Shown: positions 21,848-25,928 of the stretch, piece by piece
How the letters are laid out: every line of letters begins with the position of its first letter
How positions within the stretch are numbered: position 1 is the first letter of the stretch
Program-made: the position numbers and the translations under genes
The notes under the pieces: model-generated
Databases searched by the model: none
What the model saw: the letters and a program-made list of their open reading frames with translations, nothing else
What the model was told of the DNA's origin: nothing
From: a virus
Lineage: Duplodnaviria; Heunggongvirae; Uroviricota; Caudoviricetes
Length of the DNA stretch: 29,824 nt
Reading direction: 5' to 3' (one strand)
IMG/VR virus record: IMGVR_UViG_2609459820_000011
Location: 1 to 29,824 of that record

Positions 21848-22063
21848 ATGTACCAGATGGAAAAAATCACAACAGGTGTGTCATACACCACGTCAGCGGT
21901 GGGAACGGGCTACTGGTTCCTGCAGTTGCTGGACAGGGTTTCCCCGTCTCAGTGGGCGGCAATAGGCGTGCTGGGGAGTCTGCTGTTTGGGCTGCTGACG
22001 TACCTGACTAACCTGTATTTCAAAATCAAAGAGGACCGGCGTAAGGCGGCGCGGGGAGAGTAA
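21848..22063 (+). CDS. Class II holin, phage 21 S-like (pinholin type) with dual start motif (Met1/Met4)
   Basis: 71 aa [10 protein letters not shown]...[50 protein letters not shown]; two TM segments; GGAGACGGGG RBS; resembles S21 from memory. Confidence 0.85.
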
Positions 22064-22067
22064 AGTG

Positions 22068-22874
22068 ATGAATAAAAAATATGAACTGGTTGTTAAGGGG
22101 ATAAATAATTACGGGGATAAGGTTACTGTTACTGTGAAGCCGGAAGGTGACGGGCAAGCGTCGCTGTTGTTGCCAGATGTGGCGATTAGTCTTGACCGTA
22201 CTGAAGGTGCCACGCTGGAGTTTTACGAAGCTGAGGCGAAAAAGCAGGCGAAGCAGTTTTTCATGGATGTTGCTGCCGGGTTATGTGAATGGAACGAACC
22301 GTTGCCGGAAAAGCGCCCCGTAATTTTAGAGGCGCAGGATGTGTTGATAACCTACAAAGGAAAGCTACCGGGAAGAATTACTTGTTCTCTGAAGATGCCG
22401 CCGTCAACACTGCGGTCAGAAAAAGAGGCGTCTTGTCTGCAGTCTGAGTACTCCATTACGGTTAAAAGTGCCGGAGAGGAAGGAAATAAACGTTATTTTA
22501 TTGCGTCTGCACCTGATAAAGATCAGGAATGGGAGTGTAACCGGCCATCCTTTGTTGTATACGGAGATGGCGGGAAAATAACCATCTCAGAAAATGGGAA
22601 ATTAACACCGCCATCGCACCAGCATAGTGAGGCGCTCATTGAATTTGCCATTGATTACCTGAAGAACAATAAAAAGCAGGGGCTGATGAAGCGCATTGGT
22701 CGTTGCATGGGATATCTGCAGGTAGCAGCTGAGATTGAAATGATGGCCAGTGGTGCTGACAATGATGCAGTTGTGCTGGAGGCTCTTCTGCGTGATTTTG
22801 ATAATACGCCCTTTAAGAAAGCACCTGTTGACTGGATGCAGCCGGGGATGACTTATCTGAAAGGGCGTATATAA
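22068..22874 (+). CDS. Hypothetical soluble protein (268 aa) inserted between holin and endolysin
   Basis: ATG 5 nt after the holin stop with GGAGAG RBS; no TM segment; no recognisable motif. Confidence 0.6.
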   Translation: MNKKYELVVKGINNYGDKVTVTVKPEGDGQASLLLPDVAISLDRTEGATLEFYEAEAKKQAKQFFMDVAAGLCEWNEPLPEKRPVILEAQDVLITYKGKLPGRITCSLKMPPSTLRSEKEASCLQSEYSITVKSAGEEGNKRYFIASAPDKDQEWECNRPSFVVYGDGGKITISENGKLTPPSHQHSEALIEFAIDYLKNNKKQGLMKRIGRCMGYLQVAAEIEMMASGADNDAVVLEALLRDFDNTPFKKAPVDWMQPGMTYLKGRI

Positions 22875-22883
22875 GGTGGCTCG

Positions 22884-23198
22884 TTATCTGTTGCTGGATA
22901 ATCGACTGAAGATGCGTTCTTTTTGTGTTTTTGCGTAATGATTGTCCCACTCACAATCAAGGTAGCTTAATTCTTCATTCAACCAGTTATTTATATTGGT
23001 CTTAATACGCATAAGCATGGGCTGTGTTAATGCTCTGGCGATAATGCCGAGAGTCACAGGTGTGAGATGTCCATACGGCTCAGCCTGAATGGATTTTACT
23101 GCATCGTGTTCTTGTGGGAGGAGTAAGAGGCACTCTGATTTTACCCGCTCATTTATGGCTTGCAGGCATAAATCATAATTATGTTGATCGTTATGCAT
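22884..23198 (-). CDS. Hypothetical protein (104 aa), convergent with the preceding gene and antisense to late transcription
   Basis: AGAGGA RBS 7 nt upstream of the ATG; stop is 9 nt from the stop of the 268-aa gene. Confidence 0.5.
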   Translation of the reverse strand: MHNDQHNYDLCLQAINERVKSECLLLLPQEHDAVKSIQAEPYGHLTPVTLGIIARALTQPMLMRIKTNINNWLNEELSYLDCEWDNHYAKTQKERIFSRLSSNR

Positions 23199-23326
23199 GG
23201 TTAATCCTCTACTGAAATTGTCAGATATATTTCAGCCATCAGGAAAAACGCCAGTGTCCTACCGCTGGCGGGCTGAAGATTTAACATATCCAGGGATTCG
23301 GAACCGATAAATCCTGATAAATATCC

Positions 23327-23860
23327 ATGAACACCAAAATCAAATATGGCCTGTCGGCTGCCGTTCTGGCGTTGATTGCCATCGGTGCGCCTGCGCCTGA
23401 TATTCTCGACCAGTTTCTGGATGAAAAAGAAGGTAACCACACAACGGCATACCGTGATGGTGCGGGTATCTGGACCATCTGCCGCGGTGCCACAATGGTG
23501 GATGGTAAACCTGTTATTCCGGGCATGAAACTGTCGAAGGAAAAATGCGACCAGGTTAATGCCATTGAACGGGATAAGGCGCTGGCATGGGTGGAGCGCA
23601 ATATTAAAGTTCCACTGACCGAACCACAGAAAGCGGGTATAGCGTCATTCTGTCCCTATAACATTGGCCCCGGTAAGTGTTTCCCGTCGACGTTTTATAA
23701 GCGGCTGAATGCTGGTGACCGCAGGGGAGCGTGTGAGGCGATTCGCTGGTGGATTAAGGACGGTGGCAGGGACTGCCGTATTCGCTCAAATAACTGTTAC
23801 GGTCAGGTATCCCGTCGTGACCAGGAGAGCGCGCTGGCGTGCTGGGGAATCGACAGATAA
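23327..23860 (+). CDS. R: SAR endolysin (GH24 lysozyme with N-terminal signal-anchor-release domain)
   Basis: N-terminal hydrophobic YGLSAAVLALIAIGAPA; catalytic-region motif EGNHTTAYRDGAGIWTICRG. Confidence 0.85.
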   Translation: MNTKIKYGLSAAVLALIAIGAPAPDILDQFLDEKEGNHTTAYRDGAGIWTICRGATMVDGKPVIPGMKLSKEKCDQVNAIERDKALAWVERNIKVPLTEPQKAGIASFCPYNIGPGKCFPSTFYKRLNAGDRRGACEAIRWWIKDGGRDCRIRSNNCYGQVSRRDQESALACWGIDR

Positions 23861-23952
23861 GCAGAATATTTTGCTAATAAATGACGTTGGCCAAGGCGGA
23901 CGGATAACACGAAATCCTGCGAACTGGCAAAATGTAAGTGAATAAAAGTAAA

Positions 23953-23990
23953 AACCCCGTTTGTTGGCAGCAAGCGGGGTTTTGTTTTTA
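23953..23990 (+). terminator. Strong intrinsic terminator downstream of the endolysin
   Basis: AACCCCGTTTG ttggcag CAAGCGGGGTT followed by TTGTTTTTA. Confidence 0.6.
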
Positions 23991-24054
23991 TGGCAGTAAG
24001 CTATGGGAGGCTGCCTTGATTGATTTTAGCAAACTGATTAGGGAGTTGCGACTC

Positions 24055-24150
24055 ATGATTAGTCAATTACCAAACTGGAAATTTTTGCTGGTCTGGAGCA
24101 TCCCTTTTTTATGGGTAGTATCCCAGTTAATTGTGGCAATTAAGGGGTAG
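24055..24150 (+). CDS. Small hydrophobic peptide A (31 aa)
   Basis: MISQLPNWKFLLVWSIPFLWVVSQLIVAIKG; AGGGAG 10 nt upstream. Confidence 0.3.
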   Translation: MISQLPNWKFLLVWSIPFLWVVSQLIVAIKG

Positions 24151-24152
24151 CT

Positions 24153-24284
24153 ATGTCAGACAAACTCATAACGCCGGCAAAGGTCCTGTGTGTGATTGTC
24201 GGTATTTCATTTTCACTAATGCTGGTTGCTCTTTTTCTGTCCCTCGCCTGGGTGATGTTGTCTTCGTCGGGGCTGCTGGGGTGA
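24153..24284 (+). CDS. Small membrane peptide B (43 aa)
   Basis: MSDKLITPAKVLCVIVGISFSLMLVALFLSLAWVMLSSSGLLG; AAGGGG RBS 5-6 nt upstream. Confidence 0.35.
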   Translation: MSDKLITPAKVLCVIVGISFSLMLVALFLSLAWVMLSSSGLLG

Positions 24285-24403
24285 CAGTGACTGATGACAT
24301 CAGCAGAGCGCTGGCTTTTGCTATTAAGTGGGTGGCTGTTGGTATTGCTGTGTCTCCGATGCTGTATGGGCTGGCAAAACTGGTCATTGCGCTGAAATCG
24401 TGA
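24281..24403 (+). CDS. Small membrane peptide C (~40 aa, GTG start), paralog of peptide D
   Basis: VTVTDDISRALAFAIKWVAVGIAVSPMLYGLAKLVIALKS; shares the RA(L/M)AFAI(K/R)xVA motif with peptide D. Confidence 0.3.
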   Translation: MTVTDDISRALAFAIKWVAVGIAVSPMLYGLAKLVIALKS

Positions 24404-24414
24404 ACTTTAAAAAG

Positions 24415-24501
24415 ATGAGTGCTGAACTTATTCGGGCAATGGCATTTGCCATTCGTATTGTGGCCATTGCTGTTCTGGTCTGGGCAATCCGTTGGTGGTG
24501 A
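24415..24501 (+). CDS. Small membrane peptide D (28 aa), paralog of peptide C; stop is 1 nt before the Rz start
   Basis: [28 protein letters not shown]. Confidence 0.3.
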
Positions 24502-24502
24502 T

Positions 24503-24970
24503 ATGAACCGTGTTCTGTGTGTGGTGATTATTGTCCTGCTGGTAGCCTGTGGTGTGCTTAGTCTGGGGCTGAATCATTACCGCGATAACGCCATCACCTA
24601 CAAAGCGCAGCGCGATAAAAAAGTCAGTGAGCTGAAACTGGCGAACGCGACAATTACTGATATGCAGATACGCCAGCGTGATGTCGCTGAACTTGATGCC
24701 AGATACTCGAGGGAATTAGCCGATGCGAGAGCTGAAAATGAAACTCTGCGTGCTGATGTTGCCGCTGGTCGTAAGCGCCTGCGGATCAACGCCACCTGCT
24801 CCGGTACCGTGCGTGAAGCCACCGGCACCTCCGGCGTGGATAATGCAACCGGCCCCCGACTGGCAGACACCGCTGAACGGGATTATTTCATCCTCAGAGA
24901 ACGGTTGATGACAATGCAGAAGCAGCTGGAAGGGGCACAGGACTATATCCGCACTCAGTGCCTGAACTAA
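24503..24970 (+). CDS. rz: Rz i-spanin
   Basis: N-terminal TM anchor [23 protein letters not shown] then coiled-coil region; Rz1 embedded in the +1 frame. Confidence 0.8.
24738..24908 (+). CDS. rz1: Rz1 o-spanin (proline-rich lipoprotein embedded within Rz)
   Basis: [15 protein letters not shown] lipobox then proline-rich [16 protein letters not shown]. Confidence 0.7.
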
Positions 24971-25179
24971 GTTTTGCTGATGCACCGTATCGTCGCTGTA
25001 TTCCCTCATTAACAGAGACCGCAGCCCGACAGGGAGACTCCTCTGCGCGAGTGTGCGGGGATAATCAAAAACGATACACACCGGGGTTTACCGCGTTAAC
25101 GGAGCGCGGCGTTGTCCCCTCATAGTCGCCAGTCCGGTGCGATGGTGGAAGAAACCGGACTACATTGAAAATGATAACC

Positions 25180-25400
25180 ATTATCATTTTTGCGGGTCCT
25201 TTCCGGCGATCCGGGCCGTTACGGGGCGGCGACCTCGCGGGTTTTCGCTATTTATGAAAATTTTCCGGGAACCATGTCCGGTTTCTCTTCAAGTTAACTA
25301 TATGAAAAATAAAAAAAGAGGTCTTCTGTGAACCGGACATGCACAAAAAATAGACATGTAAGCCGGACATGACCGGTTTTGTTGTGATTGTGAAGTGAGA
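25180..25400. other. cos site (cosN with flanking cosB-like repeats)
   Basis: ACGGGGCGGCGACCTCGCGGGTTTTCGCTATTTATGAAAATTTTCCGG matches the lambda cohesive-end region from memory (cosN GGGCGGCGACCT at 25224-25235); three CCGGACATG-type repeats between cosN and the Nu1 start. Confidence 0.7.
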
Positions 25401-25418
25401 GTTTTTGCGAGGTGAGGA

Positions 25419-25928
25419 GTGGCTACGCAGACTGAAGTTGCCAGGCATTTAAGTCTGACCGATCGCCAGCTTCGCAGATTGCAGAAATTGCCGGGTGCCC
25501 CGATATCGAATAAGCGAGGGCAACTGGATCTGGATGCCTGGCGCGATTTTTACATATCGTATCTGAGAAGAAGTAAAAACGATGTGCCTGATGGCGATAG
25601 CGAAGACGACTATGAGGAGAAATTGCTTATTGCCAGATGGGAACTGACAGCAGAACAGGCTGTTACACAGCAGTTAAAAAATGAGGTGTCAAAAGGAAAA
25701 CTTATTGATACCGGGTTCTGTATTTTTGCCCTCAGCAAGCTGGCAATGGCGTTATCCAGTACGCTTGATTCCATCCCTTTATCCATGCAGCGACAGTTTC
25801 CTGATTTAACACCGCGCCATCTTGACCATCTGAAAACCCTTATTGCGAAGGGGGCAAATCAGTGTGCGCGGGCGGGGGATAAATTACCGGATTTACTCGA
25901 TGAATATATCAGAGCAACAACTGAATAA
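25419..25928 (+). CDS. nu1: Terminase small subunit, lambda Nu1-like
   Basis: GTG start; C-terminal region GFCIFALSKLAMALSSTLDSIPLSMQRQFPDLTPRHLDHLK...LLDEYI parallels lambda Nu1. Confidence 0.85.
   Translation: MATQTEVARHLSLTDRQLRRLQKLPGAPISNKRGQLDLDAWRDFYISYLRRSKNDVPDGDSEDDYEEKLLIARWELTAEQAVTQQLKNEVSKGKLIDTGFCIFALSKLAMALSSTLDSIPLSMQRQFPDLTPRHLDHLKTLIAKGANQCARAGDKLPDLLDEYIRATTE

Follow-up and report, generated by a model that had tools for sequence, protein, structure and literature searches.

A hairpin-led cassette of four small membrane-protein genes between the endolysin and Rz genes of a lambdoid Escherichia coli prophage

The DNA analyzed here (the window) is the whole 29,824-nucleotide (nt) stretch of the IMG/VR virus record IMGVR_UViG_2609459820_000011 (Caudoviricetes), and it represents the late part of a lambdoid E. 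coli prophage. Between its endolysin gene R and its inner-membrane spanin (i-spanin) gene Rz lie a terminator-like hairpin and four small genes, designated A, B, C, and D, each of which encodes a predicted single-pass membrane peptide. With the end of R at 23860 and the start of Rz at 24503, the two are separated by 642 bp, in agreement with the gap of about 640 bp pointed out in an earlier note made from the sequence alone, whereas the homologous rrrQ and rzpQ genes of the Qin prophage in E. coli K-12 overlap. Genes of the A–D type are absent from K-12 Qin, and K-12 is therefore no source of experimental data for them. Four hypothetical proteins are already annotated in the R–Rz gap in RefSeq. 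The features in this gap are as follows.

23951–23983, + strand: stem of a hairpin terminator, followed by a T-rich tail to 23991 (terminator scan, inverted repeat)
24005–24010, + strand: Shine-Dalgarno sequence GGGAGG for A, 5 nt before the TTG at 24016 (read from the sequence)
24016–24150, + strand: gene A, most likely 44 amino acids (aa) from a TTG start, MIDFSKLIRELRLMISQLPNWKFLLVWSIPFLWVVSQLIVAIKG (phrog_6632, homologues, AlphaFold2 model, hydropathy)
24153–24284, + strand: gene B, 43 aa, single-pass membrane peptide (phrog_4906, E = 4.5e-21)
24281–24403, + strand: gene C, 40 aa, GTG start (phrog_1115, E = 6.4e-25)
24415–24501, + strand: gene D, 28 aa, short RWW-ending branch of the C/D family (phrog_4493, E = 3.8e-6)

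These genes are tightly packed. The Shine-Dalgarno sequence of B (AAGGGG) falls within the last codons of A, the start of C overlaps the stop of B (GTGA), and the last codons of D (CGT TGG TGG TGA, i.e., Arg-Trp-Trp-stop) hold the Shine-Dalgarno sequence of Rz, GGTGGTGA. The coordinates 24501 and 24503 agree with the earlier observation that D stops 1 nt before the Rz start.

The four genes are real. More than 300 related loci (numbered with an L below) were gathered from IMG/VR, phage records, and genomes, and their unique DNA variants were compared for the ratio of nonsynonymous to synonymous polymorphism (pN/pS) in the stated frame and in the two other frames, with the following results.

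B: 0.39 in frame; 0.84 and 1.59 in the other two frames
C: 0.21 in frame; 0.46 and 26 in the other two frames
D: 0.35 in frame; 0.68 and 2.5 in the other two frames
Rz: 0.40 in frame; 1.01 and 1.38 in the other two frames
R: 0.10 in frame; 2.84 and 1.71 in the other two frames

Judged by these ratios, B, C, and D are under purifying selection in the stated frames only; the variable sites of C are distributed 10/1/18 among the three codon positions. The complete module (23950–24505) was found at 149 loci that represent 42 distinct contexts and 15 sequence variants, with all four open reading frames (ORFs) intact and free of indels. Frame-breaking indels and a lack of ribosome occupancy had been named as signs against these genes. 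Complete modules from the 42 contexts contain none of the former, and ribosome footprints are on record for a B homologue. Homologues keep their length down to 46–63% identity, and A also occurs in other genera. Among 5,426 complete E. coli genomes, a partial match to the junction was obtained for 2,078 and a match over at least 80% of its length for 587. The ABCD module is near-invariant, while its flanks differ by 4–12%.

The translated homologue of B is XECs191 of E. coli O157:H7 Sakai (MMGWLMISDKLITLVKSLCVLVGISFLVMLVAIFFSTAWRVLTLSGLVG), which has been listed as translated, "real," and located in the inner membrane (Hücker et al., 2017, PMC5597208). For cultures in LB medium, the reported values are 30.0 reads per kilobase per million mapped reads (RPKM) for RNA and 12.6 RPKM for RIBOseq, with a ribosome coverage value (RCV) of 0.43 and a coverage of 0.55 (PMC5597208); this signal is weak, comes from uninduced cultures, and may include reads shared among the many lambdoid prophages of Sakai. 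The B homologues found are all from E. coli, and B is a family separate from C/D. A recurrent frameshift in the last third of the gene (…LMLVALRLDDVVFVGDAGVRGI, then stop) is present in 8 of 162 B copies from IMG/VR loci, which indicates that some B copies are decaying. The possibility that B is a duplicated N-terminal anchor of Rz (KVLCVIV in one, RVLCVVI in the other) was considered and rejected, as BLASTP found nothing and a shuffle test gave p = 0.12.

For gene A, the comparison of homologues changes the gene start. The earlier note had assigned 31 aa to A (ATG 24055–24150), together with 43, about 40, and 28 aa to B, C, and D; the latter three sizes hold, while A is most likely 44 aa long, judging from its relatives. 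Homologues of 44–45 aa were found in Salmonella, Providencia, Citrobacter, Enterobacter, and Klebsiella, and they begin with (M/V)IDFSKLIRELR, an invariant N-terminal motif that lies 13 codons upstream of the ATG chosen before. Because this start maps to TTG 24016, preceded by GGGAGG with a 5-nt spacer, and since an equivalent AGGGAG or ACGAGG precedes the GTG start of the homologues, the N-terminus most likely lies at 24016. The 31-aa form is the C-terminal part of the same protein; elsewhere, a 31-aa version of A occurs in L010, where it is ATGA-coupled to an ANT/KilAC gene. The 70-aa ORF called by the Prokaryotic Genome Annotation Pipeline (PGAP; 23938–24150, as seen among the RefSeq calls in L001) was rejected as the A product, since it reads across the hairpin terminator and shows no conservation in its N-terminal part. 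The phrog_6632 alignment (E = 1.3e-12) covers residues 28–69 of this 70-aa ORF. In the AlphaFold2 model (predicted local distance difference test score of 79), helix 4–16 is followed by a break at QLPN and by helix 21–43, i.e., an N-terminal helix and a C-terminal transmembrane helix.

The 5' end of A is also conserved at the nucleotide level. Codons 2–12 (24019–24051 in the window, 3004–3036 in L167, and the corresponding positions in other A loci) have near-invariant nucleotides across genera, while the flanking spacer and codons vary; mean synonymous change in these codons is about 0.04, compared with about 0.38 at conserved residues further 3'. On the minus strand, the block contains an extended -10 element, TGCTAAAAT (24031–24023 in the window). 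The conserved block could be an antisense extended -10 promoter or, alternatively, part of an mRNA fold in which the start codon is masked.

C and D are members of a single family. The similarity between the two peptides has z = 5.75 against composition-preserving shuffles, none of 3,000 shuffles reaches it, and both peptides match phrog_4493. In addition, a profile search of 1.8 billion representative proteins recovered intermediates between C and D (MKNGLKLEAPENPEITQAAAFAIRLISIAIFIWAIRWW and MKNGLEIDAPVSVELMRAVIFAIKVMAVGAVFVPAMYGIARLILAVRWW), and the sequences P0194, P0197, and P0203 link D into the family. The paralogy claimed in the earlier note is thus upheld. The same is not true of the tandem duplication that had been read from it: C and D share only about 60% DNA identity, each branch is conserved on its own, and the branches occur separately elsewhere, as C-B-Rz, as C-D-Rz, or as a single C/D-like gene before a spanin gene. 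These patterns suggest that the paralogy is real but old, and not the product of a recent local tandem duplication. PHROG splits the C/D sequences into three families (phrog_1115, phrog_3246, and phrog_4493), with over-extended ORF calls (a 90-aa profile). A is not claimed as a full paralogue of C/D, as only its last 17 columns align (hhalign probability of 77%; p about 0.01 in an A–C shuffle test).

Canonical C/D members have 48 aa (MKNGLE...) or 60 aa (MRKYKRILLRLT-MKNGLE...), and both C and D of the window are N-terminally shortened and lack this canonical N-terminus. For C, PGAP calls a 51-aa version from a CTG start (24248–24403, again among the RefSeq calls seen in L001), and the comparative data favor the 40-aa version from GTG 24281. 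Canonical genes (2465–2647 in L084, and the relatives L170–L184) have two in-frame starts. The upstream one, ATG or GTG, yields the 60-aa form, whose N-terminal extension (MRKYKRILLRLT) is +5, whereas the 48-aa form begins at an internal ATG. The internal ATG is preceded by a near-invariant rare Arg codon, AGG (AGA in one of 51 variants), which forms a GAGG Shine-Dalgarno sequence. This arrangement may be a holin-like dual-start motif. On the minus strand of the canonical genes, TAGTCA-18-TATA(A/C)T is kept at the same place across diverged lineages.

With regard to the encoded peptides, each has one 19-residue stretch with a mean Kyte-Doolittle hydropathy of 1.9–2.9, consistent with the four single-pass membrane peptides described earlier. 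In A, C, and D, the transmembrane segment ends 2–5 residues before the stop (KG, ALKS, and AIRWW, respectively), and these three peptides are therefore tail-anchored, their transmembrane helix being placed at the far C-terminal end. The C-terminus of B is the uncharged SLAWVMLSSSGLLG. An N-in topology is predicted for A, C, and D by the positive-inside rule, although the flank-charge difference is small for most. None of the four has a match in Pfam or NCBIfam, and the PHROG matches are only to families of unknown function (phrog_6632 for A, phrog_4906 for B, and phrog_1115/4493 for C and D). No holin family was matched by A–D in Pfam, NCBIfam, or PHROG, and the hydrophilic, highly charged C-terminal domain typical of holins is absent from all four. 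Spanin features are also lacking in A–D, which have neither a periplasmic domain nor a lipobox; Rz and Rz1 are present separately. The releasin domain DUF2730 has no Pfam match in A–D, and their transmembrane domain is C-terminal instead. Searches with the anti-phage defense models of PADLOC (E ≤ 1) gave no match for A, B, C60, D, and the relatives tested.

The strong terminator reported at the head of the stretch was recovered as a 15-pair hairpin with a T-rich tail and a predicted free energy of -20.3 kcal/mol on the + strand and -13.7 kcal/mol on the - strand. Since an A-tract flanks the hairpin, a function on both strands is conceivable. A homologous hairpin (AAAACCCCG-N13-17-CGGGGTTTT) precedes the first small gene by 32–100 nt in 14 of the 15 modules examined; in the fifteenth (L169), it is present as a second hairpin that is not the best match of the scan. 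Comparison of relatives revealed compensatory changes in six pairs of the stem, and, of 48 unique versions, 38 have the more stable hairpin on the sense strand. Downstream of the hairpin, no match to a sigma-70-like promoter was obtained on the + strand, and promoter scans gave nothing above chance; likewise, an independent promoter of the kind expected for a type I toxin has no + strand match between the hairpin and the ORFs. An Rfam search over 22800–25500 (E ≤ 1) returned no match. A known small RNA at this site was rejected for the same reason, and AgvB-type prophage small RNAs are located elsewhere, after the late promoter and before the lysis genes.

A comparison of endolysin–Rz junctions across related prophages, as proposed in the earlier note, found that the frames are kept and that the hairpin-led small-gene arrangements vary. 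With the hairpin written as ~, the arrangements include R-~-A-B-C-D-Rz (the window type), R-~-C-B-Rz, R-~-C-B-C-D-Rz, and R-~-C-D-Rz, as well as R-ANT-A'-B-C-D-Rz and, in Shiga toxin (Stx) phages such as P27, R-ANT-B'-Rz. Relatives of A or C/D occur at the endolysin–spanin junction with at least five types of endolysin, namely PF00959, GH108 (L084 and L177), GH19 (L167 and L184), GH19 with PG_binding_1 (L174), and an unclassified 140-aa type (L183). Downstream of the small genes are PF03245 Rz-type, DUF2514-type, and 92-aa or 190-aa i-spanins, or a lipoprotein of 59–60 aa. In most of the contexts checked, the next start codon comes 1–8 nt after an RWW-ending gene, and in L167 the distance is 22 nt. 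With the hairpin in front and the Shine-Dalgarno sequence in the RWW-stop at the end, the cassette is equipped with an entry hairpin as well as a ribosome-binding site at its exit.

Several observations from these loci are worth recording in their own right. In the GH108 (L084, 2804–2986) and GH19 plus PG_binding_1 (L174, 2620–2799) cassettes, the Rz-type i-spanin is replaced by the 59–60-aa protein, which has a lipobox (e.g., LVGC), matches phrog_7528 (unknown function), and has a mature part of only about 30 aa; it looks like a colicin lysis protein or a lone outer-membrane spanin (o-spanin). A-like and C/D-like genes with a leading hairpin are also found in baseplate and tail operons (L273, 1995–2132; L295, 2001–2138; L169, 3001–3138; L172, 2501–2638), at sites between baseplate hub and wedge genes (hub-A-wedge), between the tail tube and chaperone genes (tail tube-C/D-chaperone), and before gpJ. 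Loci with other cargo at the endolysin–Rz junction include L171 (2634–3566), L131, L010 (2083–2778), and L003 (2274–2843).

The genes that flank the cassette in the window are as follows.

21848–22063, + strand: class II (S21-like) holin, 71 aa, with a Met1/Met4 dual start (ORF list)
23327–23860, + strand: signal-anchor-release (SAR)-type endolysin R with a hydrophobic N-terminus (Phage_lysozyme PF00959, E = 2.8e-25; phrog_7, endolysin)
24503–24970, + strand: i-spanin Rz (PF03245, E = 7.5e-50; phrog_13)
24723–24908, + strand: o-spanin Rz1, embedded in Rz (PF06085, E = 1.7e-21)

The holin is named after an identical arrangement in E. coli EC931, where the gene carries the label "class II holin family protein." A DUF1327 gene sits between the holin gene and R. 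Between the DUF1327 gene and R, a 104-aa ORF on the - strand (22884–23198; phrog_1853, unknown function) opposes the otherwise rightward late operon; it is a hypothetical protein in EC931 and DUF1823-containing in phage PhiR5_1. An exact lambda-type cosN core (GGGCGGCGACCT) is present at 25224–25235 (0 expected by chance), about 250 bp past the end of Rz and ahead of a terminase-like ORF (25419–25928). This position indicates that the window spans the right-end/left-end junction of a lambda-like packaged genome.

Taken together, we propose, with a probability of roughly 45%, that A–D are late-operon accessory inner-membrane microproteins that are chained to Rz and probably modulate lysis, a function that we infer from their setting. 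The hairpin and the four single-pass inner-membrane microprotein genes would form a compact accessory cassette in the Q-dependent late (lysis) operon. Because no promoter follows the hairpin and the spacing between hairpin and start is as short as 32 nt, expression should need read-through by Q-modified RNA polymerase. The cassette would thus probably be expressed only when such polymerase passes the hairpin, which would place A–D late, together with the holin, the endolysin, and Rz/Rz1. For translation, the genes form a chain from A through B, C, and D to Rz, by way of the Shine-Dalgarno sequence of B in the end of A, the GTGA overlap, and the Shine-Dalgarno sequence of Rz in the RWW-stop of D, and the same chain would hand ribosomes to Rz. 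In the inner membrane, A–D would then probably serve as non-essential modulators of lysis timing or efficiency, with the holin, the membrane anchor of the spanin, or a host membrane factor as possible targets. Position, timing, and membrane location together make accessory lysis modulation the best single guess, and the label of lysis regulator, one of those suggested earlier, fits the genomic context.

Precedents for such a role exist. The releasin gp25 of phage Mu (DUF2730) is an accessory membrane protein in lysis (PMC9239132), and LydC/LydD of P1 as well as mycobacteriophage regulators with one transmembrane domain provide further examples, one of the latter being encoded next to the tape-measure gene (PMC9025707). 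In comparison with these systems, A–D are like P2 LysA, P1 LydB/LydC/LydD, and T4 RI in being small membrane proteins in or beside the lysis cassette, and the position of P2 lysA, with the endolysin gene on one side and the spanin genes on the other, is also that of A–D. LysA, LydB/LydC/LydD, and RI tune the timing of lysis and are non-essential. However, LysA contains several transmembrane domains, and RI combines a SAR domain with a periplasmic domain, whereas the A–D families are single-pass, tail-anchored proteins of 28–60 aa, and there is no sequence similarity. Like A–D, Mu gp25 is membrane-tethered with a cytoplasmic part and is encoded near a SAR endolysin and spanins, but its transmembrane domain is N-terminal and its cytoplasmic domain is larger, such that A–D, with their C-terminal anchor, have the opposite polarity; the gp25 family also occurs with cytoplasmic endolysins (PMC9239132). 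Holins and antiholins (lambda S105/S107, S21 68/71) are likewise small inner-membrane proteins of the late operon, and the possible 60/48-aa dual start of C/D, with its extra positive N-terminus, recalls the holin dual-start motifs. In contrast to holins, A–D are without a charged C-terminal tail and lie downstream of the endolysin gene rather than upstream, and an S21-like holin is already present in the window.

Several points weigh against a lysis function. Since lambda, phage 21-type cassettes, and the Qin prophage of K-12 do without A–D in lysis or in their makeup, A–D can be at most accessory. The holin, endolysin, and spanin partners vary in type, which argues against a specific phage-encoded partner. 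The Q-dependence is inferred only from the terminator-like hairpin and the lack of a promoter match. Furthermore, 32 of 176 distinct contexts have their A-like gene in a baseplate or tail operon, and a few C/D-like genes are placed in the same way. Finally, the same R–Rz junction can hold unrelated cargo, such as ANT/KilAC antirepressor-like genes or a DNA N6/N4 methyltransferase gene, which suggests a permissive insertion hot spot.

The last two points would be expected if the genes were moron-type cargo of the late operon, with a role other than lysis (for instance, exclusion of superinfecting phages or inhibition of an inner-membrane protein of the host) at a tolerated insertion site, which is the main rival explanation and one that we consider possible but less likely. 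The cassette's own entry hairpin and exit Shine-Dalgarno sequence would make the insertion non-polar on downstream genes, and the RWW-stop followed by a start within 1–8 nt recurs in several lysis and two baseplate contexts. In addition, a near-invariant module between diverged flanks is what a horizontally exchanged unit would produce, and the low RNA and ribosome signal of the B homologue was obtained from uninduced Sakai (PMC5597208). The cassette resembles the lambdoid morons (bor, lom, HK97 gp15, and cor) in being inserted between adjacent genes and exchanged as a unit, and these often encode membrane proteins; here, the genes split an R/Rz pair that overlaps in K-12 Qin, and the junction content varies among relatives. 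Classical morons have their own upstream promoter and a downstream terminator and are expressed in the lysogen. In contrast, the terminator of the cassette is upstream, no promoter for expression in the lysogen was found, and the last gene abuts Rz and ends with the Shine-Dalgarno sequence for it. Moreover, roughly three quarters of the 176 distinct contexts are lysis cassettes of several unrelated types, and no known defense family was matched.

A stronger version of the lysis proposal is improbable in our judgment. It holds that the hairpin-led cassette is an unrecognized and widespread lysis component, in which A and C/D would be tail-anchored regulators that set the timing of lysis or license the spanins, C/D would have a holin-like dual start, and expression would be gated by the terminator and possibly by a cis-antisense RNA.

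Antisense control is central to a further explanation, also raised in the earlier note, in which the peptides are type I toxin-like. A membrane-toxic peptide would be controlled by a 65–75-nt cis-antisense RNA that runs from the first codons over the ribosome-binding site to the hairpin acting as a bidirectional terminator, in a SymE/SymR-like geometry. The peptides have the size and hydrophobicity of type I toxins (28–44 aa, compared with <60 aa; grand average of hydropathy, 0.9–1.6). The near-absence of synonymous change in codons 2–12 of A between variable flanks, the extended -10 element TGCTAAAAT inside this block, the minus-strand motif kept in diverged C/D lineages, and the A-tract on one side of the hairpin with the T-tract on the other are all as such a system would have them. 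HokW of hokW-sokW in prophage Sp5, a hydrophobic peptide of <60 aa in a lambdoid prophage, promotes phage release (PMC8621323), and the possible antisense promoter in the first codons of A recalls type I loci. However, an mRNA structure that hides the start codon would explain the conserved 5' block equally well, the promoter-like scan matches occur at chance frequency, and in most versions, including that of the window, the sense-strand hairpin is the stabler one. Neither an Rfam match nor a toxin promoter was found, and A–D have no family matches to Hok, Ldr, Ibs, TisB, and related toxins. In addition, B, C, and D of the window have no hairpin of their own, and tandem, translationally coupled genes in a late operon are unlike known type I loci. 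We consider a type I toxin role unlikely.

That the four are chance ORFs or non-functional leftovers, i.e., a recombination scar or a spacer that preserves coupling into Rz, is very unlikely: the shortened N-termini of C and D in the window, the frameshifted B copies, and a low ABCD diversity that could reflect recent spread might be read in this way, but the frame-specific synonymous excess in B, C, and D, the length-conserved homologues with A in other genera, the intact ORFs in every full-length module, and the ribosome footprints on the B homologue (PMC5597208) all speak against it.

Parts of this cassette are already known, as the ORFs are covered by RefSeq accessions as well as by PHROG families, and a RIBOseq list includes one homologue. 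The survey "The Cryptic Bacterial Microproteome" (PMC11188072) contains no mention of lysis or prophage contexts. The unification of C/D, the corrected start of A, and the tail-anchored topology are new, as is the finding that a hairpin, one or more small genes, and an exit Shine-Dalgarno sequence form a recurrent cassette in at least five cassette types at the endolysin–spanin junction and occasionally in tail operons. In the tests made here, the cassette did not qualify as a holin, a spanin, a releasin, a classical moron, or a known defense protein, and we regard its products as accessory small membrane proteins of a phage late operon. None of the four families has a name or a Pfam model, even though at least 587 of 5,426 genomes carry the cassette almost in full. 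The carriers include Shiga toxin phages, in which the timing of lysis governs toxin release. The corrections to the starts of A and C and the unification of C/D would improve the annotation of thousands of genomes, whichever role the genes have. If A–D have no role in lysis, the cassette would show how tiny genes enter essential phage operons without polarity. If they tune lysis or spanin action, the holin–endolysin–spanin model of lambdoid lysis would be missing a common accessory layer, and, should they prove to be widespread regulators, a fourth functional class would be added to this scheme in lambdoid prophages.

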